Source: Trypanosoma brucei
Lineage: Eukaryota
Reading direction: 5' to 3'
DNA: 64,000 bases
NCBI GenBank assembly: GCA_000002445.1
Contig: CP000070.1
Location: 1,120,001-1,184,000, forward strand
Below, in pieces: positions 4,665-38,900 of the stretch (the stretch's first letter is position 1; each line of letters begins with the position of its first letter). A program made the translations under genes and the position numbers. A model generated the notes under the pieces. The model made no database searches and was not told where the DNA came from. It worked only from the letters and a program-made list of their open reading frames with translations.

Positions 4665-5117
4665 CCCAACCGCTGGGGAGAAGAGCAATAATGAAGGTAA
4701 CACATCCCAGCAATGTATCGCTGGTAATAAATCAGTCATGTGGTGGCTTTGCATCTTAATTAAAGTTCTACCTTGTGACAAAGGGCTGCAGCCTATGCTA
4801 GGAAGTAAAATGGAGCGTTAATTTTATTCGGTGGGGAGTATTATTGTAAAGGTCCCTCAATAAACGTGTAAGACGTAACCCAAAGTAGGGGCTTAAGGAA
4901 GGATGGAAGGGCACTAGAGCATGTGTCCAGTCGCAGGTGCACACGCATAAGCCCCAATGTTCCTCTCCTTGTATTCCCGTGTTCCGCCTACACGCGAACA
5001 CCCGTACAAACTCAAGAGCACAAATCACTGCATCATTGTTTCTCTTCACTCTTCCCATAATTTTTCAATGTTTGCACAGACCCCATAGCAAGTAAGTGGA
5101 GAAAAAGGTAACACACA

Positions 5118-5858
5118 GTGAGTAAGAAAAGCAGCAACGACGAGAAACAAAAGTTTGGCGTAATGGTGATGAAGGCTTTCCCCCTTTCCCTGTTAGCGGC
5201 AACCACTGTGTTATTACTGCTGCTTCCTGTTCCTGGTAGGTGTGCTGATTGCTTTGCTCATTCAAATGATTACTCCACTCCCGGGGAGCCGTTCGGCAAA
5301 TCGAAGCACACAATCACCTTAAGTGGTGGGAACTGGGGCACTGTCATAGGCAGTGACGGAAATGCACTAAAGACGGCCCTTCTACTTGACATTTACGCTC
5401 AAATACTGCGACGGCATGCTTTTAACACTTCCGTCACCGTCGACGATATGCGACAGGGAGAGCATGGCATGGAAGCTGAAGTAACCGTTACACAGGTTTT
5501 GTTGACTGATGTCCCTAGGGCCGACTTGCAGCATACATGGAATCCCAACGAAATAACATCGTTGTTAATGCAAGGGGTGTACAAACACACAAAAGATAAA
5601 CACGATCCGCATTCAGACGTCCATCTCGTTAGTGTCAGACTCCCCGCTGCGACTACAGAGCTCCACAAGTGTGGGAAGGCCTGTTGGACTGTTCGGTTAA
5701 TAGGCATCTTTATAGGGATAGCCATGATTCTCATTGCAGCATACACTATATTCATAACGCGTAAATGGGAAAAGCAAGCGGAAAAAGAACCGGATGACGA
5801 CTCTTCGCGGGAACCATTGCCAGAACAAGAACAGAGGAGGTCGAGAACACGCGTGTAG
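5118..5858 (+). CDS. Small type-I membrane protein, family member A (signal peptide, ~150-aa ectodomain, one TM, charged tail)
   Basis: ORF with hydrophobic leader MVMKAFPLSLLAATTVLLLLLPVPG (functional start probably ~5163). Conserved motifs SKHTITLSG, TALLLDIYAQILRRHAF, VTVTQV, QHTWNPNEITSLLMQGVYKHT, CGKAC. TM segment LIGIFIGIAMILIAAYTIFI followed by K/E/D-rich tail. Confidence 0.7.
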   Translation: MSKKSSNDEKQKFGVMVMKAFPLSLLAATTVLLLLLPVPGRCADCFAHSNDYSTPGEPFGKSKHTITLSGGNWGTVIGSDGNALKTALLLDIYAQILRRHAFNTSVTVDDMRQGEHGMEAEVTVTQVLLTDVPRADLQHTWNPNEITSLLMQGVYKHTKDKHDPHSDVHLVSVRLPAATTELHKCGKACWTVRLIGIFIGIAMILIAAYTIFITRKWEKQAEKEPDDDSSREPLPEQEQRRSRTRV

Positions 5859-6787
5859 CATCGTTTCATTAGCAGCGGCGACAACAATCCGAAGTAATGC
5901 GCGGTTAGTTGCGGACAACATTCCACTGCGTCTCTTTGATATACTTTTTTTTGCTTTTGCTTTTCGCTGCATATACCAGCACCCCACTCCACGTGTGGTG
6001 AGGAGCTTGGGGTGGCATTCTTTGTTTGAACGCCTCCCATCCCCTTTTATGTTATTTTATGTTTTTTTTCCCCCTCTTGCTCGTTTATTCCCGCCCACCT
6101 TGTTGCTTTGACTGCCCTATGTACGACTGATAAATATGCATTGGACAACACATGGCTACTATTCAGTGTCTAAATACATCTTGCACACGCGGTCTTCCTG
6201 TTACTGCATGCACGGAAACTACTTTGAGCCCCCCCTTCCTTTCCCTCCCTACTTTTTCATCTTTCATATTATACCACATACATTTTGTGTATTACTCATT
6301 TTACCGTTAGCACCACCTTGCAAAGTTGTTAGCGTAATATGGGAATGTGTGTATTATATACTTCCCAATTGAATCCATATTCGGGAAGTTTTCTGTCTCC
6401 TCACTCGCCTCGTTGAAATCCTGTTAGTTGTCTCGGTATCAATGATAATATTGATGTGTGTTGAATGGTGGTTTATGGATGTGACTGTATTTTGTTGCGT
6501 ATGAACCACTGGAATGATTAAAAGGTCCTTTTAGCACTGCGGGGTTATGAATATTAATAGCCTGCACTCGTGTCAATGTATCTGGTAGTATTTTCACACC
6601 CCACCCACGTGCAACTTTTTACCTTTGCTCTGAGTTATTCTACTCCACACACCCATCGTTGCAACATTATTGGAAGTTAAGTGCTTTAGTAGTCATTAAT
6701 TTTGTAACGACTCTAATTAACGCGGTTCCGGTCGACAAAATTAAGCACTGCTGACACCCACTTCTTTATTTCCCCCACCTGGAAACA

Positions 6788-7126
6788 ATGACTCGGCAAT
6801 CCGATGTGCAAAAATCCATGAGGACAATTTCTGATGGAGCGGAAAAGGCAGTAGAAGTACGGAAATATGACGAGAAAGCGGTGCAGCAGCGGATGCAGAA
6901 ACTTTATGCCGATGTGGCGAAAAAGAAATTAGCTGAGAAGAAGCGAGCTGATGAGTTGGCGCAGATCCCGGTGTCGGAGGAGGATGTGCAACTTTTGGTG
7001 CGTGAATGCGGTTGGGAGGCGCAGGTGGCACAACAGAAACTCCGTGAGAGGAATGGAAGCGTTGTGGCGGTTCTTCGAGATGTTGCGGGACTCCCGAAGG
7101 CCAAAGCATCGAGTGGAACCTCCTGA
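6788..7126 (+). CDS. HYPK-like protein (Huntingtin-interacting protein K / NatA-associated, UBA-like C-terminus), copy 1
   Basis: 112 aa. The C-terminus VSEEDVQLLVRECGWEAQVAQQKLRERNGSVVAVLRDV parallels the HYPK UBA-like region (KKEDLELIMTEMEISRAAAERSLREHMGNVVEALIAL). The upstream charged helix KYDEKAVQQRMQKLYADVAKKKLAEKKRADEL parallels the HYPK central helix. Start codon uncertain because no AG sits between the polyY tract and the first ATG. Confidence 0.55.
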   Translation: MTRQSDVQKSMRTISDGAEKAVEVRKYDEKAVQQRMQKLYADVAKKKLAEKKRADELAQIPVSEEDVQLLVRECGWEAQVAQQKLRERNGSVVAVLRDVAGLPKAKASSGTS

Positions 7127-8339
7127 AACCTGACAAACAAAAAAAAACATTTACAATATAATGGTTATGACTGATTGAATGAGAGCAGCAGCGAGAGAAA
7201 CGGAAGTTGGCGGGGCCCTTTTGGTTGACTTGTTACGAGATGCTCAGAGGTGTGGAGCGTAAGCATGTGTGTAATCCCACTGAAGACAATTGCATGGTGA
7301 TGCAGGGGATGTTTGAGTTCATACAAATCTCAAACAAACACTGTAGAGGCGTTGAACTCATTAATGTCAAACTCCATCTGATTATTTCAGGCACGAATGC
7401 CCTCATGTAGGATGAAAAGGATTGCCACTTCCTTCATGTCGCAACGGATTCGCTATCAATTGCAACAGCTCCGACCTACAGCTTGTTGTGAGTTTTTAAC
7501 GCGCTTGGACTTCGGTAATGAACTTGGAACTTGATTTCCTGAGGATCGCCGCGGTGCATAATTTGTTCCTTCCCCATTTGATGTGAGCAGTGCGGTGCAC
7601 TTAACCATTGTGGTATCACTGCTTCGCTTTCTATGAGTGTGTGCTGTACAAATCTAATTCCTCTTCCACTATTTACCGTATTTGAAGCTCATTAAAGGAA
7701 CCATAATTAGCAAAGGGGGCACACTCAGTTGTCAAGGCAGTGGAACCCACAACATCCGCGCACAGCGGTGACACAAATGCATAATAGCTGCTTTTCATAC
7801 ACCTCTATTGTGGGGATGTTGATTCTCAAAGCGTAGTGGTTGTAATTTGAAATCAGGCATGGAGCGTCTGGGTAGGCGCATCGAGGCCAATCGCTTTATT
7901 ATGGGACAGTTGGATGGTATGCGAGGGTGCACGCCTGCTGTTGGTTGCAGCGGCAGCCTCAAAAAATTAAGTTATGCAACACTCGGTGTATTGCGCCGGG
8001 AGAATATGCGGCGGTGCGGGTGAGCCCTTTCACTGCACTTTGGGCAGCGGGGGTTGGGATGGTATCTACAGGGGATCTACTTCACATTGGAAAGTAAACG
8101 TCACAACTGCTGTCTCGACTGGTCGCTGATAGAACCCGTGAGGTGGAGAGAGAGACTGCTAGACCGGAGTTCCCTTCCAGGACGGATTAGCATCGGCAAA
8201 CCGAGAGGCACAAGCACGCCCTCGTTGTTGAATTACTGATCGGCATTCTGTTGGAGGTATGAAGGAATCGCAGTGGCGGCGGTGTTGATTAAAGTTTGAG
8301 AAACCTCGAGGAAAGGGAAAACCTCGTGTCGCAAAAGTC

Positions 8340-9515
8340 ACTATTTCCCGGGAGTCACACCGGCTATAGAGGCTGAAATTGAATACTTGAGAAAACAGTT
8401 GGGCGACTGTAAAGAACAACTTATAAAATACAGAGCACACTTTGAGCAGGTTAACCACGTTATTAAGAATAGACGAATTAAAGGAAATGGTTCAGCAGCA
8501 AGCTCAGACATTGGAAAAGCTCGAAAAATATTATCAAGAACAAAACGCCCAAAAGGTCCCGTGGCCGCTGATCCTCGGAAACGATGTCTGTAAACCCCCA
8601 ACCTTCCTCCATAGACCGTCAACAGAGCACTCAGATGTACCAACATGTTTCCACTACTCCGCTCGGCTTTAGTATAAACTGGGTCGGATGGAAAAACAGA
8701 GCGGAAACCTCTGAAGGACTTTTACAATTGTATGACGAATGTGGGACTACAATTGGGAATCCTGAGAGGCCTTCATGGTACAATTCTGTAAATTAATGGG
8801 GGGGAAGTGAATCATCTCTACATTTTTGGACGTTCACAAGATGGGTACGGTATTATGACCACTTCGTGGCTACGGCGAATAGAATGCCAATACAATATAT
8901 AACAACAGGGGCAGCTATGTATAAAACATGGCGAATGGAAATGGCAGCACAGAAAAGAGGAGTATTTATCCCACGGGCAATACAAGAAGGATTGGATACT
9001 GAAGGAGGTATCAATGTATGATAAGATGGCAAACGCAGCTGCAAAACAAAGAGCTCAGAGAAGTCGCCAAGGACGGAATTGAAGCAATTTCAACAACCAT
9101 CAGCGTCGAACAAGCCCAAACGGGCGAAGGAAGTCCCCATCGCGGAAACAGTAGCAAAGGCGAGACTGAGCGGGGCTCGTAAAATATACCGCTCCCGACA
9201 TAAGAGAATGAAACAAAAGGCGAAGAAAGAATGGTCAAAACTACAAATCCACAAGAACAGTGAATATGTTCGAAAACACATGGGAAACAAGAAAATTCTA
9301 TGGGGGTGTTGCGATCCGCGCGCGGATATACGCAACAAAGAGATACGGGGATGCACAAATAAAATAGTAGCTCCGGCACCACCTAACCCAGTGACTGTCC
9401 CCCGCGCGCAGATTAGGCCCTGTTCGTCAGGGAACTCTGAGCGAGAGCACTGTCCGGACCTTAAAATGCCCATTCAAGCACCGGAAGTCAAGCCGATGCT
9501 ATGGCGTAAACTATT
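8340..9515 (+). mobile_element. Partial inverted copy of a degenerate retroelement 5' region (gag-like, frameshifted) inside the left arm
   Basis: Mirror of 10482-11657. Coiled-coil ORF fragments in three frames (LRKQLGDCKEQLIKYRAHFEQVNHV / LRIDELKEMVQQQAQTLEKLEKYYQEQNAQK) are followed by a very basic ORF (MKQFQQPSASNKPKRAKEV...RSRHKRMKQKAKKEW...). The frame changes imply decay. Confidence 0.4.
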
Positions 9516-11657
9516 AGGCTGGCATTAACACGCTTGCACGCATTGTTGAAAAAAACTGAACTTCCTCATTATTTCTTGGAACCAGTCTAGCGGCTCAGTT
9601 GCTAATACTTTTGCCGTAGCCACCAGGCTTCCAAATAATTTTTCAAGGTCTCGCAGGTCGATTAATTTCAAATATTCTTGTGTCGTCATCTGAATAAATT
9701 GTCTAGCCACATTATTTTCAATTTATTCAGATGTTTTTCTGTTACTTGTACACTTTTATTATTGTGGTCCAAGACCGCTCCTATGGAATCATAACTGGTG
9801 GCGTAAGGCAGCGGTTCGGATAATGTCACGCAGTATTTCTCCACCTTGCCGTGGAGGAGGCTAATTATTTTTGGCGCTTGTTTTTCCGTAATTGCTAGTC
9901 TGAAATTATCGATCCAGACATCACCGTCTATCATCCGGTGCTCTCAACGCGTTACCTGCGAGTGCCCCGTTAATGTCATTACCAACCACTGCATAATTTC
10001 GCAGCTTGTTGTTAATCCCATGGGCAATTGTGTCATTTCCAAAGGCGAACCATCTGCAGTTGCAATGGAGAAGCATGCGGTGGTGTTTACCGGCAGGTCA
10101 ATTTCATAGTAACTTGCTTTTAAATCACCCACTATTGCTCCAGCAGCGGAGAGTATGTCCAGGTACTCCTGGAACGGGTTTAATTCCACTATACAGCGAT
10201 AATCACACACATTATCTAAATAGTCATTCGTCGTGTTTGGCCATACCAATAGTCTCCTCCTGTTTTTCCAGGGTTCATCGACTGTAGATGCACGGGCGAC
10301 TGGGGGATCCACTGTCGATTTCGTGATATTCGCGCTGAGTACGGTCTTGGCATCACTGGATGATAGCCACTAACGCGCTGGGACGTCGCCTATTTCGTCC
10401 CGTCTTACGTATTGCGCGGCATCGGCTAATTGCCGGAGCAGCACTTGAATTCTTTCTTGCACCTTATTTTTTGTCGAACGCAATAGTTTACGCCATAGCA
10501 TCGGCTTGACTTCCGGTGCTTGAATGGGCATTTTAAGGTCCGGACAGTGCTCTCGCTCAGAGTTCCCTGACGAACAGGGCCTAATCTGCGCGCGGGGGAC
10601 AGTCACTGGGTTAGGTGGTGCCGGAGCTACTATTTTATTTGTGCATCCCCGTATCTCTTTGTTGCGTATATCCGCGCGCGGATCGCAACACCCCCATAGA
10701 ATTTTCTTGTTTCCCATGTGTTTTCGAACATATTCACTGTTCTTGTGGATTTGTAGTTTTGACCATTCTTTCTTCGCCTTTTGTTTCATTCTCTTATGTC
10801 GGGAGCGGTATATTTTACGAGCCCCGCTCAGTCTCGCCTTTGCTACTGTTTCCGCGATGGGGACTTCCTTCGCCCGTTTGGGCTTGTTCGACGCTGATGG
10901 TTGTTGAAATTGCTTCAATTCCGTCCTTGGCGACTTCTCTGAGCTCTTTGTTTTGCAGCTGCGTTTGCCATCTTATCATACATTGATACCTCCTTCAGTA
11001 TCCAATCCTTCTTGTATTGCCCGTGGGATAAATACTCCTCTTTTCTGTGCTGCCATTTCCATTCGCCATGTTTTATACATAGCTGCCCCTGTTGTTATAT
11101 ATTGTATTGGCATTCTATTCGCCGTAGCCACGAAGTGGTCATAATACCGTACCCATCTTGTGAACGTCCAAAAATGTAGAGATGATTCACTTCCCCCCCA
11201 TTAATTTACAGAATTGTACCATGAAGGCCTCTCAGGATTCCCAATTGTAGTCCCACATTCGTCATACAATTGTAAAAGTCCTTCAGAGGTTTCCGCTCTG
11301 TTTTTCCATCCGACCCAGTTTATACTAAAGCCGAGCGGAGTAGTGGAAACATGTTGGTACATCTGAGTGCTCTGTTGACGGTCTATGGAGGAAGGTTGGG
11401 GGTTTACAGACATCGTTTCCGAGGATCAGCGGCCACGGGACCTTTTGGGCGTTTTGTTCTTGATAATATTTTTCGAGCTTTTCCAATGTCTGAGCTTGCT
11501 GCTGAACCATTTCCTTTAATTCGTCTATTCTTAATAACGTGGTTAACCTGCTCAAAGTGTGCTCTGTATTTTATAAGTTGTTCTTTACAGTCGCCCAACT
11601 GTTTTCTCAAGTATTCAATTTCAGCCTCTATAGCCGGTGTGACTCCCGGGAAATAGT
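9516..11657 (-). mobile_element. Degenerate retroelement (gag-like plus Ty3/gypsy/DIRS-type reverse-transcriptase remnants), spanning right arm and unique centre
   Basis: Minus-strand order is coiled-coil gag-like ORFs (11610->11201), then the basic protein (10918->10370), then RT motifs in the unique centre. The RT motifs are GDLKASYYEIDL (cf. DLKSGYHQI), TACFSIATADGSPLEMTQLPMGLTTSCEIMQWL (cf. KTAF.T..G.YEF.VMPFGLTNAPATFQRLM), VWIDNFRLAI (cf. VYLDDILIFS), then FGSLVATAKVLATEPLDWFQE (cf. the post-RT F..LK.AL.SAPVL..PDF block). Multiple stops and frameshifts mean it is non-functional. Confidence 0.5.
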
Positions 11658-14117
11658 GACTTTTGCGACACGAGGTTTTCCCTTTCCTCGAGGTTTCTCA
11701 AACTTTAATCAACACCGCCGCCACTGCGATTCCTTCATACCTCCAACAGAATGCCGATCAGTAATTCAACAACGAGGGCGTGCTTGTGCCTCTCGGTTTG
11801 CCGATGCTAATCCGTCCTGGAAGGGAACTCCGGTCTAGCAGTCTCTCTCTCCACCTCACGGGTTCTATCAGCGACCAGTCGAGACAGCAGTTGTGACGTT
11901 TACTTTCCAATGTGAAGTAGATCCCCTGTAGATACCATCCCAACCCCCGCTGCCCAAAGTGCAGTGAAAGGGCTCACCCGCACCGCCGCATATTCTCCCG
12001 GCGCAATACACCGAGTGTTGCATAACTTAATTTTTTGAGGCTGCCGCTGCAACCAACAGCAGGCGTGCACCCTCGCATACCATCCAACTGTCCCATAATA
12101 AAGCGATTGGCCTCGATGCGCCTACCCAGACGCTCCATGCCTGATTTCAAATTACAACCACTACGCTTTGAGAATCAACATCCCCACAATAGAGGTGTAT
12201 GAAAAGCAGCTATTATGCATTTGTGTCACCGCTGTGCGCGGATGTTGTGGGTTCCACTGCCTTGACAACTGAGTGTGCCCCCTTTGCTAATTATGGTTCC
12301 TTTAATGAGCTTCAAATACGGTAAATAGTGGAAGAGGAATTAGATTTGTACAGCACACACTCATAGAAAGCGAAGCAGTGATACCACAATGGTTAAGTGC
12401 ACCGCACTGCTCACATCAAATGGGGAAGGAACAAATTATGCACCGCGGCGATCCTCAGGAAATCAAGTTCCAAGTTCATTACCGAAGTCCAAGCGCGTTA
12501 AAAACTCACAACAAGCTGTAGGTCGGAGCTGTTGCAATTGATAGCGAATCCGTTGCGACATGAAGGAAGTGGCAATCCTTTTCATCCTACATGAGGGCAT
12601 TCGTGCCTGAAATAATCAGATGGAGTTTGACATTAATGAGTTCAACGCCTCTACAGTGTTTGTTTGAGATTTGTATGAACTCAAACATCCCCTGCATCAC
12701 CATGCAATTGTCTTCAGTGGGATTACACACATGCTTACGCTCCACACCTCTGAGCATCTCGTAACAAGTCAACCAAAAGGGCCCCGCCAACTTCCGTTTC
12801 TCTCGCTGCTGCTCTCATTCAATCAGTCATAACCATTATATTGTAAATGTTTTTTTTTGTTTGTCAGGTTTCAGGAGGTTCCACTCGATGCTTTGGCCTT
12901 CGGGAGTCCCGCAACATCTCGAAGAACCGCCACAACGCTTCCATTCCTCTCACGGAGTTTCTGTTGTGCCACCTGCGCCTCCCAACCGCATTCACGCACC
13001 AAAAGTTGCACATCCTCCTCCGACACCGGGATCTGCGCCAACTCATCAGCTCGCTTCTTCTCAGCTAATTTCTTTTTCGCCACATCGGCATAAAGTTTCT
13101 GCATCCGCTGCTGCACCGCTTTCTCGTCATATTTCCGTACTTCTACTGCCTTTTCCGCTCCATCAGAAATTGTCCTCATGGATTTTTGCACATCGGATTG
13201 CCGAGTCATTGTTTCCAGGTGGGGGAAATAAAGAAGTGGGTGTCAGCAGTGCTTAATTTTGTCGACCGGAACCGCGTTAATTAGAGTCGTTACAAAATTA
13301 ATGACTACTAAAGCACTTAACTTCCAATAATGTTGCAACGATGGGTGTGTGGAGTAGAATAACTCAGAGCAAAGGTAAAAAGTTGCACGTGGGTGGGGTG
13401 TGAAAATACTACCAGATACATTGACACGAGTGCAGGCTATTAATATTCATAACCCCGCAGTGCTAAAAGGACCTTTTAATCATTCCAGTGGTTCATACGC
13501 AACAAAATACAGTCACATCCATAAACCACCATTCAACACACATCAATATTATCATTGATACCGAGACAACTAACAGGATTTCAACGAGGCGAGTGAGGAG
13601 ACAGAAAACTTCCCGAATATGGATTCAATTGGGAAGTATATAATACACACATTCCCATATTACGCTAACAACTTTGCAAGGTGGTGCTAACGGTAAAATG
13701 AGTAATACACAAAATGTATGTGGTATAATATGAAAGATGAAAAAGTAGGGAGGGAAAGGAAGGGGGGGCTCAAAGTAGTTTCCGTGCATGCAGTAACAGG
13801 AAGACCGCGTGTGCAAGATGTATTTAGACACTGAATAGTAGCCATGTGTTGTCCAATGCATATTTATCAGTCGTACATAGGGCAGTCAAAGCAACAAGGT
13901 GGGCGGGAATAAACGAGCAAGAGGGGGAAAAAAAACATAAAATAACATAAAAGGGGATGGGAGGCGTTCAAACAAAGAATGCCACCCCAAGCTCCTCACC
14001 ACACGTGGAGTGGGGTGCTGGTATATGCAGCGAAAAGCAAAAGCAAAAAAAAGTATATCAAAGAGACGCAGTGGAATGTTGTCCACAACTAACCGCGCAT
14101 TACTTCGGATTGTTGTC
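10482..14117 (-). repeat. Right arm of the large inverted repeat
   Basis: See left arm. Only one mismatch was found (5922 C vs complement of 14075), giving LVADNI vs LVVDNI in mirrored ORFs. Confidence 0.9.
12871..13209 (-). CDS. HYPK-like protein, copy 2 (identical mirror copy in the right arm)
   Basis: 112-aa translation identical to 6788..7126. Confidence 0.55.
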   Translation of the reverse strand: MTRQSDVQKSMRTISDGAEKAVEVRKYDEKAVQQRMQKLYADVAKKKLAEKKRADELAQIPVSEEDVQLLVRECGWEAQVAQQKLRERNGSVVAVLRDVAGLPKAKASSGTS

Positions 14118-14975
14118 AGCACTATTGCTATCAGATATGCCTTCGTTACTTTCTGTTTCCATTCTGGCATCGTCGACGTTTAGGACATTGACTGCATGTT
14201 TATTTGGAGTAGGAATGTCTTCCTCTTCTTCTTCTTCATCTTCCTCTTTTTCTGCATCCCTTCTCCATTTAAAAATTAAGAATACGCAAATTGCAGAAAC
14301 GAGAGCCATAAAAAACAAAATGACGCCCGAGAAGGTTCGCAGAGCCGCGCAGCCCTCCCCGCACCTATGAAGTTTTTCACTTATGGTCGGGTTCTTGACG
14401 CTCAGGAGGCGCACGGCACCGTTGCTACCGGTTTCGCTGTTACCACCGTACTCATTGTACAAGTTGTTTGTGTGTTTATACGTTCCTTGCATTAGTAACG
14501 ACGATATCTCGCTGGGATTCCATGTGTGCTGCATCTTCTCGCTCGGGGTACCATTTATCAAAACTTGCGTAATGGTCACTGTAACACTCATGTGTTTACC
14601 TCGAGTATTTACGTCGTTGATGTCAGCTGTGGTGTCGAAAGCGTGTCTCCGTAATATTTGAGCGTAAATATCAAGAAGAAGAGCCGTCTTTAGTTTCCTT
14701 TCACCCCCCGTATACACACCACCCCACTTATCGCCACTAAAAGTGATTACATGTTTCGATGTGCCCAACTGTTCTTCGTCAGTGGAATTATTGTCCCTCG
14801 GTGTTGCAAAGCAATTTTTCGAGAGAGTGGGCATGGGGATCAGCAACAGCATTGCTGCTGTTGTAAGAGAAAATGAAACCTTCACTGTCATTATGCTGAA
14901 AAGGGCTTTCTCTTTTCCTTTCTTTTTGTAAGCTACCCGTGTTTTACTTCTTTGCTCTAAGCCAAAACTTACCAA
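14100..14975 (-). CDS. Small type-I membrane protein, family member B
   Basis: Hydrophobic leader MTVKVSFSLTTAAMLLLIPMPTL. Motifs SKHVITFSGDKWG, TALLLDIYAQILRRHAF (identical 17-mer to member A), VTVTITQV, QHTWNPSEISSLLMQGTYKHT, CGEGC. TM VILFFMALVSAICVFLIF. Long acidic tail (EEDEEEEEEDIP...). The ORF-track start at 14975 is probably upstream of the true Met. Confidence 0.65.
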   Translation of the reverse strand: MVSFGLEQRSKTRVAYKKKGKEKALFSIMTVKVSFSLTTAAMLLLIPMPTLSKNCFATPRDNNSTDEEQLGTSKHVITFSGDKWGGVYTGGERKLKTALLLDIYAQILRRHAFDTTADINDVNTRGKHMSVTVTITQVLINGTPSEKMQHTWNPSEISSLLMQGTYKHTNNLYNEYGGNSETGSNGAVRLLSVKNPTISEKLHRCGEGCAALRTFSGVILFFMALVSAICVFLIFKWRRDAEKEEDEEEEEEDIPTPNKHAVNVLNVDDARMETESNEGISDSNSADNNPK

Positions 14976-15899
14976 TAATTCGAGTACGGTTGAAGAAAGA
15001 AAGAAAGGGGGGAGTGAAGGGAATCATGTTGGACAGAATCCACAACAAAAATTATAATTAACCGAATGGATCAACTTCATTGTCCAAACAGTCTCTGTTG
15101 TACTGCTGTTGTCGTCACCGTTCATTTGTGGTGAGGGAAGGAATTGTGTGTGCCGATTTATCCTTCCTGTTTTCTCTTAATAACGAGACAATAAAATAAG
15201 TGACCGTTAATATCTTTTATTTTCTTTTCTTCCCCCGGTACTCGAACCGCAAGGCGGGGGAGTCACATATAACGAGAGATCAAAGATACAAATAAATAAT
15301 ATAAAACAGCAGAAGGGCACACACACACATACATATATATATATATACATGTATGAGGGAACGAAATTAAGATAGTTTTTAACAAGGAGGAAGAAATAAA
15401 GCACTGAAAACTAAAAGAAACTCGACGCAACGGCTCTCAATATTCGCCGTACTTTACTCTCAGGGATCGCAGAGGTGTATTTTTTTTTCTTTCCTTGTCC
15501 CATTTCTTTTGGCACCTCCCGCGGCCTGCTCGTGGAAGAATGCACATAATTACGATAACTTACGTTCATGTCATATAAAATAATAATAATAGACAACAAC
15601 GACGCGGTGGCGATGATTGTTTTGATTAAATAACCTGAAGGGGGAAAAAAAAAAGAAACCTCAGTGGAGGAATATTCACAGATGGATGTTTTTTTCATTA
15701 TTATTTTGTTTTTGTTTCTGCGGGTGACAGCCTTTCCTTTAATTTTATTTGTTGGTTATGTACCGCTCATGTCCTACGTTGAGTGGTGGAAGAAGCACAA
15801 AAACAAGACTACAGCACAACTGAGTGAACAAATAAACTAACAACAAAAGTAATCGGATTGAAGCAGTGACGAATAAAACTTTTTTCACTACATATGCCT

Positions 15900-16613
15900 T
15901 TATTTGTTTGTTTCCTCAGTCCTATAGTGGTCTTGATTGTAAGGATGATTGGCATTGCTCTCATCTTTTTCTTTTGGTTCCCCACGGCAACAGTTGACGA
16001 TTAGGTAAATGATCAAAATAAGTAAAGAAACCCCCATTAAAATAATAACTACCATCGCCAGCTTTAATAGTCGCCTGCATGTGTCATCGCACTCACCAAA
16101 ATGCAGTTTTCCATCATGCACCTTCACGGAGATGAGTTCCGGTCTCTTCACACCTTCGTACAAACTTAGCGTTTTACTATAATCCGTCTGCGTAATAAGT
16201 GAATTCACCTCCGCAGGCGGCCAAATGTGTTGCCTCTCAGGATTTGAAACTTGTGCCCTGACGGTTTGTACAACAACTATGAGTATTTCGATAAAGTTGT
16301 GTGTGGGGTCGAATGAGGTAATTAAAACCTCCGTCAGAAAACTTCCATTCCGTTGCACGTAACGATCGATGTCGCTCACAAGTATTTCCCTCAGTTGTTC
16401 CTCTTTCTGCTGGACAGTTGCCGCCCAATTGTCGCCATCAAATTTCACGGTATGTTTTGATGTTGAGGACTGCTGGATGTCGTCAGCACACCTACCAGGA
16501 ACAGGAAGCAGCAGTAATAACACAGTGGTTGCCGCTAACAGGGAAAGGTGGAAAGCCTTCATCACCATTACGCCAAACTTTTGTTTCTCGTCGTTGCTGC
16601 TTTTCTTACTCAC
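15900..16613 (-). CDS. Small type-I membrane protein, family member C
   Basis: N-terminal 44 aa (MSKKSSNDEKQKFGVMVMKAF[H/P]LSLLAATTVLLLLLPVPGRCAD) nearly identical to member A. Divergent ectodomain with a QHIWPPAEVNSLITQTDYSKT motif, CDDTC pair, TM MVVIILMGVSLLILIIYLIV and a charged tail. Confidence 0.65.
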   Translation of the reverse strand: MSKKSSNDEKQKFGVMVMKAFHLSLLAATTVLLLLLPVPGRCADDIQQSSTSKHTVKFDGDNWAATVQQKEEQLREILVSDIDRYVQRNGSFLTEVLITSFDPTHNFIEILIVVVQTVRAQVSNPERQHIWPPAEVNSLITQTDYSKTLSLYEGVKRPELISVKVHDGKLHFGECDDTCRRLLKLAMVVIILMGVSLLILIIYLIVNCCRGEPKEKDESNANHPYNQDHYRTEETNK

Positions 16614-16785
16614 TGTGTGTTACCTTTTTCTCCACTTACTTGCTATGGGGTCTGTGCAAACATTGAAAAATTATGGGAAGAGTGAAGAGAAACAATGGTG
16701 CAGTGATTTGTGCTCTTGAGTTTGTACGGGTGTGCGCGTGTATTAAGTCAAGAAATGAGTGAGATAACAATGACCAATAAACAGG
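16497..16785 (-). promoter_or_regulatory. Conserved 5' flank/5' UTR block of the membrane-protein family (copy upstream of member C)
   Basis: About 285 bp nearly identical to 18108-18384 (upstream of member D). Its proximal ~180 bp is also found, reverse-complemented, at 5035-5215 (upstream of member A). It covers the presumed splice-acceptor region, 5' UTR and signal-peptide codons. Confidence 0.55.
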
Positions 16786-17538
16786 AGTCAGAAAGAGTAT
16801 TTGTACAAAGAAAAATTAGTGAACGATGCGGGAGAGCAACAACACAAGCTCAATAACAATAACGGAAAAAAGCAATGAAGACGACAGTCGCTTTGCCTAC
16901 TTGTCATCACAAATGTTAATTTCCTGCTGATGGGCAATAACCCAATGCCTACCCTCGGTAATTTGGTGAGATTCAGAGAAAAAAAGCAAAGGAATGTGGG
17001 AATTTCTTCGATCGAATGGAAACCCCTCAAAAAGGAGGAAAAAGTAAACATACGTAAAAATAACTCCCCCTCCTTCTGTCACACGAATATACAAGAATAT
17101 ATGTATTTTTACGCACACGTGAATTAAATGTTGCGCGCAACAAGAAATAAAACACAAGAGAACTTACATTGCCATTTTTTGTTTTAGTATCATCTGTTTA
17201 AGACAAATATCAACCGGTGAAGCACAAAGAGTTGTTGAAACAGAGATAAATAGATAAATTCAATAGTGTATATGAAGCACGGAGTGATGACAGTCGAAAA
17301 TACGAAGGAACGGGATGCGCATAACACAGAAGAGTGAATACGGTGCAATGACAAATCAAAAGAAAAAATACAACTCACTCGATATCATGAGACTTCTACA
17401 ATCAGAAAGCATTTGCTATTAGCGTGGAAAAAGAATGAAGAAGCAATAAAATATGTATAACAATGGCACGTACCTATAGCCACAGCTAGTATTGGGGGCA
17501 TCGAACCTGATGGGGCTAGTCCGCCGTTTTCGGTCACT

Positions 17539-18219
17539 TTAATCCCTTTCTTCAAGTTTCGGACGCCGGAAATGCGAATAAATCCAAATGTACGCCGTCA
17601 CACTAACTATTATGGTCATAGCAGCGAGAGACACGGCCACCACACCTCTAAGAATTTGACAGCTCGTGCCACATAATGGCGGACCCGGGGGAACCAAAGG
17701 AAGTCTGACGGTAATGAGTTCAACATCCCCATGGGGTTTGTACGTGCTTTTTGTGTGTTCAAATTTTCCCTGCATTATCATAGAGTTGGCCTCACTGGGA
17801 TTCCACACATGCTGCAACTCAGGCGTGGGGTCATCAGCCAATGCAACTTGTGTAACGGTCACTTCAACTTCCATTTCCCCCTCTCTCACTTTCATATTGT
17901 TGATGGTAACGGTGGTGTTGACGGCGTACTCCCGTTGCGTTTGCAAGTAAATGTCGAGCAAAAGTGACTTCCTCAACTTCGCTTCATCACTTATGACAAT
18001 TTCGTCCCATTTCGTGCCTTTAAAGGTGATTATGTGCTTCGATTTGCCGAACTCCGTTGGTTGCAAGTACAACATCGTACCATTGAGGCAGTCAGAGTGT
18101 GCGGGAACAGGAAGCAGCAGTAATAACACAGTGGTTGCCGCTAACAGGGAAAGGGGGAAAGCCTTCATCACCATTACGCCAAACTTTTGTTTCTCGTCGT
18201 TGCTGCTTTTCTTACTCAC
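17539..18219 (-). CDS. Small type-I membrane protein, family member D
   Basis: Same leader (MSKKSSNDEKQKFGVMVMKAFPLSLLAATTVLLLLLPVP). Motifs SKHIITFKGTKW, SLLLDIYLQ, VEVTVTQV, QHVWNPSEANSMIMQGKFEHT, CGTSC. TM VVAVSLAAMTIIVSVTAYIWI and a short basic tail. Confidence 0.65.
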   Translation of the reverse strand: MSKKSSNDEKQKFGVMVMKAFPLSLLAATTVLLLLLPVPAHSDCLNGTMLYLQPTEFGKSKHIITFKGTKWDEIVISDEAKLRKSLLLDIYLQTQREYAVNTTVTINNMKVREGEMEVEVTVTQVALADDPTPELQHVWNPSEANSMIMQGKFEHTKSTYKPHGDVELITVRLPLVPPGPPLCGTSCQILRGVVAVSLAAMTIIVSVTAYIWIYSHFRRPKLEERD

Positions 18220-19871
18220 TGTGTGTTACCTTTTTCTCCACTTACTTGCTATGGGGTCTGTGCAAACATTGAAAAATTATGGGAAGAGTGAAGAGAAACA
18301 ATGGTGCAGTGATTTGTGCTCTTGAGTTTGTACGGGTGTGCGCGTGTATTAAGTCAAGAAATGAGTGAGATAACAATGACCAATAACGCTACTTGATGAT
18401 GGAAACAAAAAGGGTACACGCATAAGAAGTCTACCACCATTCCATGGTGTGATTATTGCAAACTCGAAGGTAGTGTCGATTAACCACCCAGACGAGCCAT
18501 CTCCAGTTGTCGTTACTGTTGTTAATAGACCGAAAACAAGCCCTAGTAAGCGGTTAATTACTGGAGGAAGGATTTGCTCCTCTTTATTGGTGCTGCATAC
18601 TAACTTGTTATCATTGTTCCTTCAGCACTGCTGTTCAGTACGATAGGAGGAGGGGATTTGAATATATATATATATATATAAACAACTTTGCAGAACCAAA
18701 ATGCATCACTGAATTCCAACGAAGCGTTAAGACGAAAAATGATAACCCCCTCTCAGCATTGTCGACGCCAAGTTTATCGTTTTAAATACAAACATGCACG
18801 GAAATACGTATGATGCGTGCCCATAAACCCGTTGGATCAAATATTCACGCGGCGGCACTCTGTAAAATATAAAATGCCCGTCATGCGGCACGACGGAACG
18901 AGCGGGTCAACTTGTGGTTTCTACCCTTTTGTATCTTCAGGGCGCAATGGTGCTTCCACAACGCACCGAAGCTACTCAATGTCGGTTCACTATCGTGTGG
19001 CAACTTCATGACTAGGCCATTTCGATTTTGAAGTTATACTTCACTACTTAGTCGCCCCACGCTCCATTTCATTTGGAAGTACCGTATCTAACGCGGTGCC
19101 AAGGCTTGTTTTTGCTCCTTTGGCAGAACAAAAACATTCAGTAGCAAACGGTTGGCAGTAAAGTTTGAGATGGGCCGACTAAGAACTCAGAGCCGTTGGC
19201 GCGGATGTCCCCACGGGTTGGTTTAGTATGCCCAAGTGACGTGCTCAGTGAGTTCTTCAGCTGAGTCCTTACGTATTGTGTGAAGGCCGTAGTTAAGCGG
19301 CAGCATTCGTGGGGCCAGATTATTTGACCAAATAGCTGCGACAAGTGAAGGAATACCTTCAGCAGCCTAGTTCTTGTCCATAGTTCCCCTAGAGATAGCT
19401 CTTATGAAGGAGAAAAAGTGAAGGCAACCCATTGGATGTTAGAAGTGAAGCGACGCGAAAGGGGGAAACAGTAAATCTTGCGGATGAAGAAATGCAAACG
19501 TATATCTCATGAGAGTTTGGCTCGAAAGGGAGGCGTTTTGTCAAAAGCGTACGAATGGAAAGGGAAAGAAGGGACAAGTGGCATTTGCGTACTCCCTTTA
19601 AAGTTAGGAACCACAGTTGCACGTCTTCCCGGATGCTCATCCATCCACCTCTTCGCACTGTCACCAGGGCCCCCCTGCCGATTGGGACATGGCTCTCATA
19701 TCAAATAACGCTTTCAAAAGCCTTAACAATTAATAGTCATAAATAATAATAATAATATTGATAGTAGTCGGCACGATGCTGTGCCATGAACGAAGACCGA
19801 CATCCATTCAGTCACAACGCAGTTTCACGCCGTGGAGAACTGCAACGCTGGATTCAGCTTTTTCCTGGTGA

Positions 19872-20765
19872 TCAGCATATTTTGGCTTGTGAGAAGTCCA
19901 TTTCGGGATGCGCCGCCATAAACTTCGCCAGCATTTCTCTCTTTTTCTGCTCCTCTGAAGTGGGCAGTCCCATGGCCTTTTGCCTCTGGTCGTACATCAT
20001 TTTTTCAACCGTTTGTCTTGTATCGCCGTCAAGGTCGTCTAACTTGGAGTTCTCCGGCATCACCTTCTGCAGGTCGATTTCAGCATCACCCACCATAACA
20101 GTCTTCCACCACTCCATTTGATTTTGCTTCGTCAGCGTAACCACCACCGTGTGACCATCTTCAATAGTCCACATGGACTCCTCAGTTTTCACACTGGCAA
20201 AAAGCTCGCCATCAACAATAGGAGGCTTCCCCTTCATCCCCACCCGTAAACGGCGCTGCTGAAGAACCACATCCACATCCTTCCCCTTTGCGCGTGCCAC
20301 CAGTAACGGCACTCTCACTTCGACCTCCTTAAGTGTTTGCGAGAACATATAGTGCTCGTAATCGAACCCGTTCCCGACGGTCGGAGGAAGTCCTTTCGGC
20401 TTTGCTCCATCTTCATCTTCTTTCGCATTTGCTAATTCTTCCTTTTTTCGCTCCAAATCCGCTTTGCGCTTTGCGGCTTCAGCAGCCGCCTGCGCCGCCG
20501 CCTTCGCCTTCACCTCCTCTTCATCCTCCACCTCTTCCACGCGCGAGACGGGTGCCTCCTTCCGTTTTTGCCTTTGTTTCTCTTCCGCCTGCGCTAAATG
20601 GCGGTCAAGTGCGCGTTGTACTGCTGTGCGAGCCATGGCTGGTTGCGAGAAGAAGTCCGTTTTCCGCCCAAGAAAAGAGAAGAAGGTGTTGAGGATGGAG
20701 TCAATGCCATCGTGCTGCTGGGCGATAGCCAAAAGCATCGTGTCGAATCGTTCGTCCGTCGCCAT
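19872..20765 (-). CDS. NUDC: Nuclear distribution protein NudC homologue (CS domain)
   Basis: 297 aa. Acidic/K-rich coiled region, then a CS-domain core (YMFSQTLKEVEVRVPL...EESMWTIEDGHTVVVTLTK...WWKTVM) and the NudC-type C-terminus KFMAAHPEMDFSQAKI. Confidence 0.85.
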   Translation of the reverse strand: MATDERFDTMLLAIAQQHDGIDSILNTFFSFLGRKTDFFSQPAMARTAVQRALDRHLAQAEEKQRQKRKEAPVSRVEEVEDEEEVKAKAAAQAAAEAAKRKADLERKKEELANAKEDEDGAKPKGLPPTVGNGFDYEHYMFSQTLKEVEVRVPLLVARAKGKDVDVVLQQRRLRVGMKGKPPIVDGELFASVKTEESMWTIEDGHTVVVTLTKQNQMEWWKTVMVGDAEIDLQKVMPENSKLDDLDGDTRQTVEKMMYDQRQKAMGLPTSEEQKKREMLAKFMAAHPEMDFSQAKIC

Positions 20766-35994: not shown

Positions 35995-38900
35995 CTAGTA
36001 ACCTGCCAAGTCCCAGATGCTCGCGGCACGTTCGACTTCACTACAAACACCATCAGCACACTTTCGTACGCGTGGCGCACCTCTCATTGGGCTTAGTGAG
36101 GGAAATAGGTAATTGTCGACGTACATTTTCTGGTAGCGCCACTCCGCCGACTCCAGGAATGAAACAGTCACTTTGCTGTAAAAAGGTTGAAGGTGCTGTG
36201 CACCCCTCAATGATTGGGCTCTCTGTTTCCGAAGATGAAGTTTGTAGATTTCTGCATAACCGATCGGTGCCGCGGTGTTACCCTGCTGACGTGCTTTTTG
36301 ACAAACCTGCAGACTCCCACAGGGATTGGAACGGCTCAACGTAACAAATCTCGCTTCCCCTGATGCGGAGGCAGCGCCGTGCGTCGCCGTTCCTGCACAC
36401 TCTGTACCTCGAACCTTTTTCCTGCGCTTGACATTGTAGCCCGTGAAATCGCTATCATTGGCAATAGAACCCTGAACAGCCGACTTGCGCATAAGCAGAG
36501 GGGCCCACGGCCGGTCACGAAGATGCGGGGGAGTGCTGCACCGTCCATCCGTAATGTTGATTGACCAAACAACAGCTTTCTCATGCTGTTTTGGGTGTTC
36601 AGCTTCATCAAAAGTCACCAGGGAGCCAGTGCTCTGTTCGTTCGCCTGATATTCCGCAGGTACCGGGTCTTCCAGTGGCTCAGTGACATCTTTCACCATT
36701 GATAAAGCGGGTTCATTCCGATGTGGCCGCTTGCACAACAGTGAAGCGTCAGTGTACGGTTCAGTAGCGCGTGCCTCATCCTTAAACAGAGCGGTGTTAT
36801 TCGCTTCAATTTCACAATGACCACCTCCGGACCCCGCAACATCACCCGCATATTCTTCAAAACACAAGGATAGACTGGGTGGCCATTGCACCAGTGATCG
36901 ATAACAGTTCAGCTCGTCCCACCGCATTTCATTCCTCGCGTAATACTCAGCTCGTTCATTGTGCCACCGATTTCGTGCTTCTCTTTGAACAAGTTTGAAT
37001 AAAGAAATGTAGCACTGTTCCTCAACACAAGAGACCATATCACTGTAAGAAGAAACAACTTGGTTCGATTGGTCTTCGGTCCACACATAACCCTTGGTTG
37101 GTTCAGCAGTCGGATACGTCGCCTCGACAGCGGGTAATTCATGCTGGTCAGCTACGTCTGCAACACGGAGTGGGGTGGTGACGCGGTGTTCGAGAGCAGC
37201 AGAGTAACGAATCGCTTCAGCGCCCGTGGTAGTGGAAATTGATATATCACAACCACTCCTGTCACTCACGCCAAACAGTGATTTGCCAGCACCTTCAAGC
37301 GGCTCCCTGGTAGTGCTCAGTTCATGGAGCACGGTCGTCAAAACCGTATTCGCACGTTGCTCAGAATCAAGAACAATCTTATCATCTGAGCTTGCACAAA
37401 TACCAGCCACATCAACGCTAAGCATGCTTCCACTCCTCAGCGTGTTCGAGCGCATGACGCGCCGTAACAAGTTTGTAACACCCTCATCTTCTTGGCTTTC
37501 GATGGTGCCTCTTATTGCACATTCCTCACGTTGCAATTCACTAAGCAACTGTTGACACTGGAGGTAGCGTCTTTGTTCCTGTAATCGATATGCACTACGC
37601 TCAGCAGCAGAAGCAGCGGATTCACCTGCCCATCGTAACAAGTTTGTAACACCCTCATCTTCTTGACTTTCGATGGTGCCTCTTATTGCGCATTCCTCAC
37701 GTTGCAATTCACTAAGCAACTGTTGACACTGGAGGTAGCGTCTTTGTTCCTGTAATCGATATGCACTACGCTCAGCAGCAGAAGCAGCGGATTCACCTGC
37801 CCATCGTAACAAGTTTGTAACACCCTCATCTTCTTGGCTTTCGATGGTGCCTCTTATTGCACATTCCTCACGTTGCAATTCACTAAGCAACTGTTGACAC
37901 TGGAGGTAGCGTCTTTGTTCCTGTAACCGATATGCACTACGCTCAGCAGCAGAATCAGCGGATTCACCTGCCCATCGTAACAAGTTTGTAACACCCTCAT
38001 CTTCTTGGCTTTCGATGGTGCCTCTTATTGCGCATTCCTCACGTTGCAATTCACTAAGCAACTGTTGACACTGGAGGTAGCGTCTTTGTTCCTGTAATCG
38101 ATATGCACTACGCTCAGCAGCAGAAGCAGCGGATTCACCTGCCCATCGTAACAAGTTTGTAACACCCTCATCTTCTTGGCTTTCGATGGTGCCTCTTATT
38201 GCACATTCCTCACGTTGCAATTCACTAAGCAACTGTTGACACTGGAGGTAGCGTCTTTGTTCCTGTAATCGATATGCACTACGCTCAGCAGCAGAATCAG
38301 CGGATTCACCTGCCCATCGTAACAAGTTTGTAACACCCTCATCTTCTTGGCTTTCGATGGTGCCTCTTATTGCACATTCCTCACGTTGCAATTCACTAAG
38401 CAACTGTTGACACTGGAGGTAGCGTCTTTGTTCCTGTAATCGATATGCACTACGCTCAGCAGCAGAATCAGCGGATTCACCTGCCCATCGTAACAAGTTT
38501 GTAACACCCTCATCTTCTTGGCTTTCGATGGTGCCTCTTATTGCACATTCCTCACGTTGCAATTCACTAAGCAACTGTTGACACTGGAGGTAGCGTCTTC
38601 GTTCCTGTAATCGATATGCACTACGCTCAGCAGCAGAATCAGCGGATTCACCTGCCCATCGTAACAAGTTTGTAACACCCTCATCTTCTTGGCTTTCGAT
38701 GGTGCCTCTTATTGCACATTCCTCACGTTGCAATTCACTAAGCAACTGTTGACACTGGAGGTAGCGTCTTCGTTCCTGTAATCGATATGCACTACGCTCA
38801 GCAGCAGAATCAGCGGATTCACCTGCCCATCGTAACAAGTTTGTAACACCCTCATCTTCTTGGCTTTCGATGGTGCCTCTTATTGCACATTCCTCACGTT

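Follow-up and report, generated by a model that had tools for sequence, protein, structure and literature searches.

The 64,000-nt window analyzed here (contig CP000070.1, positions 1,120,001 to 1,184,000) stems from chromosome 7 of Trypanosoma brucei brucei TREU927 and carries a long palindrome that is the published inverted repeat Tb927_07_IR3 (IR3) of Tschudi et al. 2012. Very probably, the centre of IR3, which lies at a convergent strand-switch region, is occupied by a dead, truncated copy of the retroelement VIPER, and the mechanism that we propose for the locus is included in this assessment. According to this proposal, a transposon would have inserted at the end of a transcription unit, and a subsequent inverted duplication would have given rise to a new convergent strand-switch region and to a source of hairpin RNA. 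Both the IR3 palindrome and the presence of degenerate VIPER copies in T. brucei have been described previously, whereas the VIPER relic as the core of IR3, the concerted evolution of the arms at the subspecies level, and the lineage-specific arrangement of the locus appear to be undescribed in searchable papers. What results is an annotation for an already known locus of a reference genome and not a new kind of system.

A repeat search over positions 5000-16000 identified one long inverted pair, namely, a left arm at 5880-9515 and a right arm at 10482-14117, of 3,636 nt each, which are reverse complementary with a single mismatch (blastn) and are separated by a unique spacer of 966 nt (9516-10481). 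These limits coincide exactly with the breakpoints 9515|9516 and 10481|10482 proposed in a first-pass annotation that had been made by inspection of the DNA letters. The same annotation had attributed the DNA to a strand-switch region of a trypanosome, which agrees with the finding that seven ORFs (open reading frames) of the window are identical to TREU927 chromosome 7 proteins (AAZ12486 to AAZ12504) and that genes are encoded on the plus strand to the left of the palindrome and on the minus strand everywhere to its right, forming a convergent strand-switch region. The palindrome, which had not been recognised as a published siRNA locus in the first-pass annotation, was identified as IR3 by its length of 3,636 bp and its one mismatch, both as listed in Table 3 of Tschudi et al. 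2012, by its location on chromosome 7, and by the exact occurrence of both published IR3 probes in the window. A palindrome with the same boundaries is present in the assemblies of T. b. gambiense DAL972 (L003) and T. equiperdum IVM-t1 (L002), in which the spacer has 957 nt instead of 966 nt. Each arm contains one gene for an HYPK-like UBA protein, located at 6788-7126 on the plus strand in the left arm (AAZ12488 or AAZ12489; Pfam UBA_HYPK, E=2e-11) and, as an identical ORF, at 12871-13209 on the minus strand in the right arm. The exact left-arm protein was found in TREU927, DAL972, and T. equiperdum. In TREU927, this protein is listed under two consecutive accessions, and T. b. gambiense likewise has two accessions for it; both arms are thus present in the reference annotation. 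The annotated gambiense and equiperdum assemblies contain two copies of the gene as well.

The entire spacer corresponds to the decayed third ORF (ORF3) of VIPER on the minus strand, covering the fingers, palm, and thumb of the reverse transcriptase (RT), as seen from tblastn matches and alignment motifs. The RT peptides that had been quoted in the first-pass annotation, DLKASYYEIDL, LPMGLTTSCEIMQWL, VWIDNFRLAI, and AKVLATEPLDWF, were all found in the minus-strand translations. In an exhaustive phmmer search of 1.84 billion protein representatives, a 141-aa ORF at 9947-10369 (minus strand) produced 164 matches with E<=1e-3 (best E value of 3.6e-12), and the best of these proteins bear the Pfam domains RVT_1 and RT_RNaseH across the matched stretch. 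A conceptual protein joined over the stop at 9944 aligned continuously at residues 33-217, with scores of up to 92.7 bits. The alternative of a chance resemblance of motifs was considered and is excluded by the exhaustive-search matches and the joined-protein alignment. A VIPER-clade RT (rt574 of the metagenomic relative L009, described below) used as a tblastn query matched 9719-10261, again spanning the stop, with an E value of 7.7e-26. An alignment of the RT family (A1) showed that the motifs RRRxxxWP, DLKASYY, LPMG, and YDxxG...H...K as well as the thumb are present in the window sequence, and that the replacement of the usual YxDD box by IDN is the norm in this family, whose members have VWIDN, VWIDD, or VWIDG. 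The interruptions by stops and frameshifts that had been reported earlier correspond to in-frame stops at 10370-10372, 9944-9946, and 9686-9688 and to a frameshift near 9700; otherwise, the minus-strand frame from about 11413 to 9686 contains few stops. Indels of 2 nt and 5 nt distinguish the spacers of brucei and gambiense, which indicates that the spacer is free of coding constraint.

To assign the element to a family, the window RT was scored by phmmer against 34 sequences from the RT alignment of Ribeiro et al. 2019 (PMC6681497, supplement 16), which span VIPER, TATE, DIRS, PAT, Ngaro, hepadnaviruses, caulimoviruses, retroviruses, Ty3/gypsy, BEL, copia, and LINEs (long interspersed nuclear elements). 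Among the families that the first-pass annotation had suggested for comparison, VIPER stood well apart from TATE: six trypanosomatid VIPER RTs scored 33.6-74.4 bits, with 74.4 bits for Crithidia fasciculata, 64.6 for KV452601, 56.3 for T. grayi, and 53.2 for T. cruzi, whereas the best TATE score was 16.7 bits and all references other than VIPER and TATE remained at or below 10.8 bits. In alignment A1, two features specific to the VIPER family stand out, namely, the WIDN box and the RRRFIxWP motif. The closest relatives that carry a name are trypanosomatid proteins of Leptomonas pyrrhocoris and Angomonas deanei ('TcC31.12'), and one of these relatives, P0044, agrees by eye with the VIPER sequence KV452601 in the RT alignment of Ribeiro et al. 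The intact metagenomic relative L009 encodes a 490-aa gag-like first ORF, followed by a 344-aa ORF that matches VIPER recombinases with an E value of 1e-13 and by an overlapping RT ORF, an order that corresponds to the VIPER architecture in the literature. Judged by its sequence, the element is best classified as a relic of VIPER, a kinetoplastid tyrosine-recombinase retroelement of the DIRS order, in which VIPER was placed by Ribeiro et al. 2019 (PMC6681497). The tblastn survey of TREU927 in the same study returned 58 RT/RNase H and 36 recombinase matches and no gag match, and all 15 TREU927 copies analyzed there were degenerate; the copy in the window is not among these 15. It shares with VIPER the clade motifs RRRxxxWP, DLKASF/YxQ, LPMG, VWIDN, and YxFxGVxFDH, the thumb, and the trypanosome host, and it is degenerate like the other T. 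brucei copies. It differs in that it retains part of ORF3 only, in that it is embedded in a palindrome of host genes, and in that no recombinase, RNase H, recognisable gag, or split direct repeats were detected in it. As a side observation, public databases list the multi-copy VIPER RT proteins of L. pyrrhocoris (P0036, P0066, and members of their cluster) as 'target of rapamycin (TOR) kinase 1', which looks like a propagated mis-annotation.

The limits of the relic relative to the arms are informative about the rearrangement. By tblastn, homology to ORF3 extends from about 10540 down to about 9690, with a few gapped high-scoring segment pairs beginning at 10654-11095, and the thumb could be aligned within a 61-aa ORF at 9525-9710. 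The segment 9525-10540 (minus strand) hence contains the RT core, preceded by about 70 residues and followed by the thumb, along with the three in-frame stops and the frameshift. A profile made of 300 pre-RT residues from 42 relatives matched 10540-10316 with E=3.9e-5 (11.1 bits, as compared to 0.9 bits for the best of 30 shuffles) and gave no match further upstream than 10540. Homology to ORF3 passes the junction 10481|10482 between right arm and spacer in frame, and the right junction is thus native, the element being continuous over right arm and spacer. At the other side, the element is cut at 9516, before the RNase H domain, and 9515|9516 is the rearrangement junction, at which the truncated RT is joined to an inverted copy of the segment containing HYPK and the 5' part of VIPER. 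No RNase H or other VIPER part was found elsewhere in the 64 kb by tblastn with 150 full-length relatives; the lack of RNase H, together with homology that ends in the thumb (at about 9525), fits a truncation and not another family. These data bear out the earlier proposals that the duplication breakpoint lies inside the retroelement and that the left arm holds a mirror copy of part of the element, in that 8584-9515 (plus strand, with the same ORFs on the opposite strand) copies 10482-11413. However, the mirror does not end exactly where the RT begins, as had been stated, because the ORF3/RT homology starts at about 10540, some 59 nt within the right arm.

The part of the element upstream of 10540 was interpreted in the first-pass annotation as a gag-like region. 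No homology to gag was found for it, although VIPER gag is too divergent to be detected even between species, and neither phmmer with 43 N-terminal regions nor the profile yielded anything significant in 10541-12600. From 11413 downward, the sequence is mostly in the frame of the RT itself. The stretch 10541-11413 (minus strand), which includes the basic ORF of the first-pass annotation and a part of its gag, has 3 stops in 291 codons in the RT frame, as compared to a shuffle mean of 12.7 for the best frame, and only 3 of 20,000 shuffles had counts as low. In related ORF3 proteins, the RT is preceded by an N-terminal region of about 400 aa that is basic and of low complexity, and in the window 382 codons lie in the same frame ahead of the RT core. 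Given the stop-poor RT frame and this N-terminal region in relatives, 10541-11413 is probably the N-terminal extension of VIPER ORF3 rather than gag. An order in which gag is followed by RT is furthermore disfavoured because an intact VIPER needs a recombinase ORF of about 1 kb between the two, for which there is neither room nor trace: tblastn with six VIPER and one TATE tyrosine recombinase cores gave a best E value of 0.014 in the window and no match in 10400-12600. About 1.9 kb of the third ORF survive in total, namely, the N-terminal extension (about 11413-10540) and the RT fingers, palm, and thumb (10540-9525). Further upstream, 11414-11764 (minus strand, mirrored at 8233-8583) contains frame-shifted, coiled-coil-like ORF fragments (ORFs 11325-11555 and 11404-11610) without Pfam match, which are a putative part of the element.

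The comparison with other trypanosomes provides clues to the origin of the palindrome. In T. vivax and T. cruzi, the HYPK orthologues form part of co-directional arrays on one strand together with genes of the F family of membrane proteins. The order in T. vivax is Utp12, F, HYPK, F, HYPK, F, with direct tandem F-HYPK units (L014, 8272-13510), whereas that in T. cruzi is Utp12, other genes, HYPK, F, F, F (L015-L017, 10001-14010). The array is followed by an ingi-like element in T. vivax (15006-17573) and by VIPER or an L1Tc fragment in T. cruzi strains, with VIPER at 14351-20174 (minus strand) of L016 and at 17608-19156 (plus strand) of L017. The end of the F/HYPK array is thus a recurrent landing zone of transposable elements. 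In the T. brucei group, the order is Utp12, F0, HYPK, and VIPER, followed by inverted HYPK, F1, F2, and F3; of the species examined, those of this group alone show such a mirror arrangement. This strand-switch region thus probably goes back to an inverted duplication at the end of a gene array where a transposon resided. We propose that the duplication arose in the T. brucei lineage through a break or a template switch inside VIPER, and a fold-back origin of the palindrome is plausible.

As an alternative, two inverted copies of VIPER or of the F-HYPK unit may have been present beforehand and may have given rise to the palindrome through non-allelic recombination or inversion, in which case the junctions would mark later limits of gene conversion. 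Tandem F-HYPK copies already exist in T. vivax, and transposable elements gather downstream of the array in both T. cruzi and T. vivax. In addition, inverted similarity extends in weaker form past the arms: the F-family gene F0 (5118-5858, plus strand), which is situated just beyond the left arm, is the diverged mirror partner of F1 (14100-14975, minus strand), with a residual inverted similarity of 75-83% outside the perfect arms. The 5' end of F0 moreover matches those of F2 and F3 in inverted orientation with 99% identity (4989-5248 versus 16483-16742 and 18104-18348), which speaks for ongoing exchange between inverted paralogues beyond the arms, and there is a direct repeat on the right side (16498-16780 and 18104-18386). 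These similarities suggest patchy gene conversion in the F family across the palindrome. Either more than 3.6 kb may have been duplicated originally, or the inverted F genes may still be exchanging sequence. Against recombination stand the sharp inner junction inside one continuous ORF3 and the absence of RNase H from the window, for which a single truncation is the simpler explanation, as well as the absence of a second RT fragment in the left arm past the mirrored part. We therefore regard a recombination origin as possible but rather unlikely.

Far less probable is an element of the Ty3/gypsy type, that is, a retrotransposon with long terminal repeats (LTRs), or of the classical DIRS type, in which gag would be followed directly by pol. 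LPxG- and xDD-type motifs are common to the RTs of all LTR and DIRS-type elements, and the succession of a coiled-coil region, a basic region, and an RT resembles gag-pol. However, the reference scores of such elements do not exceed 10.8 bits, as compared to 53-74 bits for VIPER: the gypsy-type elements 412, gypsy, and Ty3 reached 10.8, 6.5, and 0.7 bits, respectively, and DIRS1_BF 4.4 bits (classical DIRS elements at most 4.4), SkowPat 2.4, PAT 2.1, and Ngaro -0.2 bits, with the hepatitis B virus at about 0 or below. The VIPER-specific WIDN box and RRRFIxWP motif are likewise at odds with such an element, and neither protease nor integrase was matched in Pfam. Direct repeats of at least 40 nt were absent from 5000-16000, which argues against LTRs but has little weight for split direct repeats, given that the 3' end of the element is gone and its 5' end undefined. 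The initial designation as a decayed 'Ty3/DIRS-type' retroelement hence holds for the genuine decayed RT and broadly for the DIRS order, but neither for Ty3 nor for classical DIRS.

It is similarly improbable that the locus is a centromere-associated domain of degenerate retroelements, a setting that had been raised in the first-pass annotation. In the literature, degenerate VIPER/SIRE elements occur at centromeric strand-switch regions of T. cruzi and degenerate INGI/DIRE elements in T. brucei. The window, however, contains no AT-rich or CIR147-type array, its sole tandem arrays being a coding 171-nt repeat and (AC)20, the GC content is unremarkable across the locus, and Tschudi et al. 2012 kept IR3 apart from the putative centromeric regions.

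The alignment of six arms, two each from brucei, gambiense, and equiperdum IVM-t1, revealed concerted evolution of the arms. Within brucei, one arm differs from the other at 1 site, and within gambiense at 1 site plus 1 gap, whereas 43-45 mismatches and 16-17 gap columns separate the brucei from the gambiense arms, corresponding to a divergence of about 1.2%. The unique flanks diverge by 0.7-1.1% between the two subspecies. The arms are thus alike within a genome and yet diverge between lineages at an ordinary rate, which points to frequent gene conversion from arm to arm. With 2.6-3.3%, the spacer (9516-10481 of the window versus 12733-13693 of L003) is two to three times more diverged than arms and flanks, and relaxed constraint is insufficient to account for this difference, as most of the arm sequence does not code for protein either. 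The arms of gambiense and equiperdum reach 3 nt further inward (AGG/CCT) than in TREU927, where the corresponding positions are 9516-9518 and 10479-10481; the ancestral junction was probably 3 nt deeper, and one side was later mutated in TREU927. There are parallels to the large palindromes of primate sex chromosomes, which also combine a unique spacer, genes within the arms, and arm-to-arm gene conversion with arms that are highly similar within a genome and diverged between lineages (in the window, >99.9% identity within the genome and 1.2% between orthologous arms). The palindrome described here is roughly a thousand times smaller, is located at a transcription-termination region, and is linked to RNA interference (RNAi), and its spacer stems from a retroelement.

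That the inverted repeat is an assembly artefact, caused by a chimeric fold-back read or a mis-join, can practically be dismissed: near-identical arms would be expected of an artefact and the short-read T. equiperdum OVI contig L005 ends at the end of the spacer, but the same boundaries occur in the Sanger-based TREU927, in DAL972, and in the independently deposited T. equiperdum IVM-t1, both arms carry subspecies-specific substitutions, and IR3 was verified by PCR (polymerase chain reaction) in strain YTat 1.1 by Tschudi et al. 2012.

IR3 accounted for 372,045 AGO1-bound small-RNA reads, by far the most among the inverted repeats, and these reads originated from the spacer and from limited portions of the arms (Tschudi et al. 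2012). In the same study, the reads fell to 73% of the wild-type level in the absence of DCL1 and to 41% in the absence of DCL2, and the data on IR3 siRNAs included a northern blot. The small interfering RNAs (siRNAs) of IR3 were shown to rise upon deletion of histone H3.V (Reynolds et al. 2016, PMC4721609). The first IR3 northern probe, taken from an additional file of Tschudi et al. 2012, matched exactly at 8569-8593 (minus strand) and 11404-11428 (plus strand), and the second matched exactly at 8233-8257 and 11740-11764; both sites are in the inner third of the arms, adjoining or within the retroelement-derived part. The locus fits the class of near-identical long inverted repeats that produce endogenous, Dicer-dependent, and AGO1-bound siRNAs of 22-25 nt; the repeat was confirmed here, and the siRNA production is known from the literature on the same locus. 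According to the proposed mechanism, two converging RNA polymerase II units would read into the palindrome, and their transcripts would fold back or pair with antisense RNA to form double-stranded RNA, a substrate of Dicer. Frequent arm-to-arm gene conversion would maintain identical arms and hence the stem. Published experiments at the locus indicate that IR3 RNA is diced and that the siRNAs are loaded into AGO1 and restrained by H3.V.

The papers on Tb927_07_IR3 (Tschudi et al. 2012; Reynolds et al. 2016) deal with the identical locus but report no central retroelement, no comparison of the arms between subspecies, and no synteny among trypanosomes. VIPER is not mentioned in Tschudi et al. 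2012, and a full-text search that joined T. brucei, inverted repeat, siRNA, and VIPER returned the VIPER survey only. Similar systems are the hairpin RNA (hpRNA) loci of Drosophila and the siRNA loci at transposon-derived inverted repeats of plants and fungi, in which a long inverted repeat, partly of transposon origin, also gives rise to fold-back RNA and to Argonaute-loaded siRNAs. In contrast to these systems, the locus in the window is without a dedicated promoter and is most likely transcribed from two converging polycistronic units, its arms hold HYPK, a duplicated functional host gene, and no siRNA target is known.

A number of points weigh against the reading of IR3 as a palindrome centred on a VIPER relic or limit its reach. 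A Pfam hmmscan of the pseudo-ORFs and the pseudo-protein gave no RT match even at E<=1, a word-indexed protein search with the 287-aa joined RT gave no match, and a PDB sequence search returned chance matches to L,D-transpeptidases only; the word-indexed search with the family alignment A1 retrieved a single unnamed protein. The first-pass annotation had counted on profile and tblastn searches to recover RT and gag, of which the RT was recovered by phmmer and tblastn, whereas Pfam gave no RT match and gag was not matched at all. Given the negative Pfam, PDB, and word-indexed searches, the RT call rests on the exhaustive phmmer search, on tblastn, and on transitive homology. The lack of detectable homology upstream of 10540 leaves the 5' limit of the element undefined, and the coincidence of the siRNA-rich part with the VIPER-derived part is based solely on two published probe positions. 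The fold-back model fits the sharp truncation but requires a second event that rejoined the Utp12 side, and because recombination between the arms can flip the spacer, the sequence does not reveal which arm is the original one. Finally, the T. equiperdum IVM-t1 arms (L002, 9096-12738 and 13696-17334) differ from each other at 11 sites and in 8 gap columns. Several of these sites show the brucei state in one arm and that of gambiense in the other, and the differences could reflect an assembly error, incomplete conversion, or a hybrid haplotype.

The near-perfect identity of the IR3 arms and the heavy siRNA output of this repeat were previously unexplained, and the relic core, the homogenised arms, and the lineage-specific mirror give this question a concrete shape. 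A bolder, rather speculative idea that we consider improbable is that IR3 is a retained 'trap', in which a VIPER relic in a palindrome at a termination region serves as a standing source of double-stranded RNA, selection for the hairpin and not only passive conversion keeps the arms identical, and VIPER relics may underlie several siRNA loci that are neither ingi nor SLACS. In this context, two VIPER copies of Ribeiro et al. overlap by coordinates with siRNA loci of Tschudi et al., namely, the copy on chromosome 2 (894,682-911,167) with IR1 (898,600-902,200) and that on chromosome 5 (115,202-131,660) with CTU11 (123,700-131,000; 33,373 reads), with the caveat that these overlaps join two studies on different assembly versions (v5.1 and v4). 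The 'miscellaneous' siRNA loci of Tschudi et al. are given without coordinates. VIPER relics may underlie further siRNA loci besides IR3. Should this prove true, RNAi in T. brucei would target, in addition to ingi and SLACS, a third family of retroelements.

Scans of the locus for tRNAs and Rfam families gave no match, and weak FAZ1_cons matches were obtained for F0. The T. b. gambiense annotation contains three ORFs inside the palindrome, CBH12560 to CBH12562 (L003, 11801-12238, 12425-12739, and 12943-13323), termed 'hypothetical protein, unlikely'; these ORFs coincide with VIPER-derived or antisense sequence, and it is almost certain that they do not represent genes. At some distance from the palindrome, the coding 171-nt repeat mentioned above, which corresponds to 57 codons, is present in 9.3 tandem copies with 99% matches (37463-39045) and is located within an ORF of 1,405 aa (35995-40212, minus strand) that contains a BING4CT domain.

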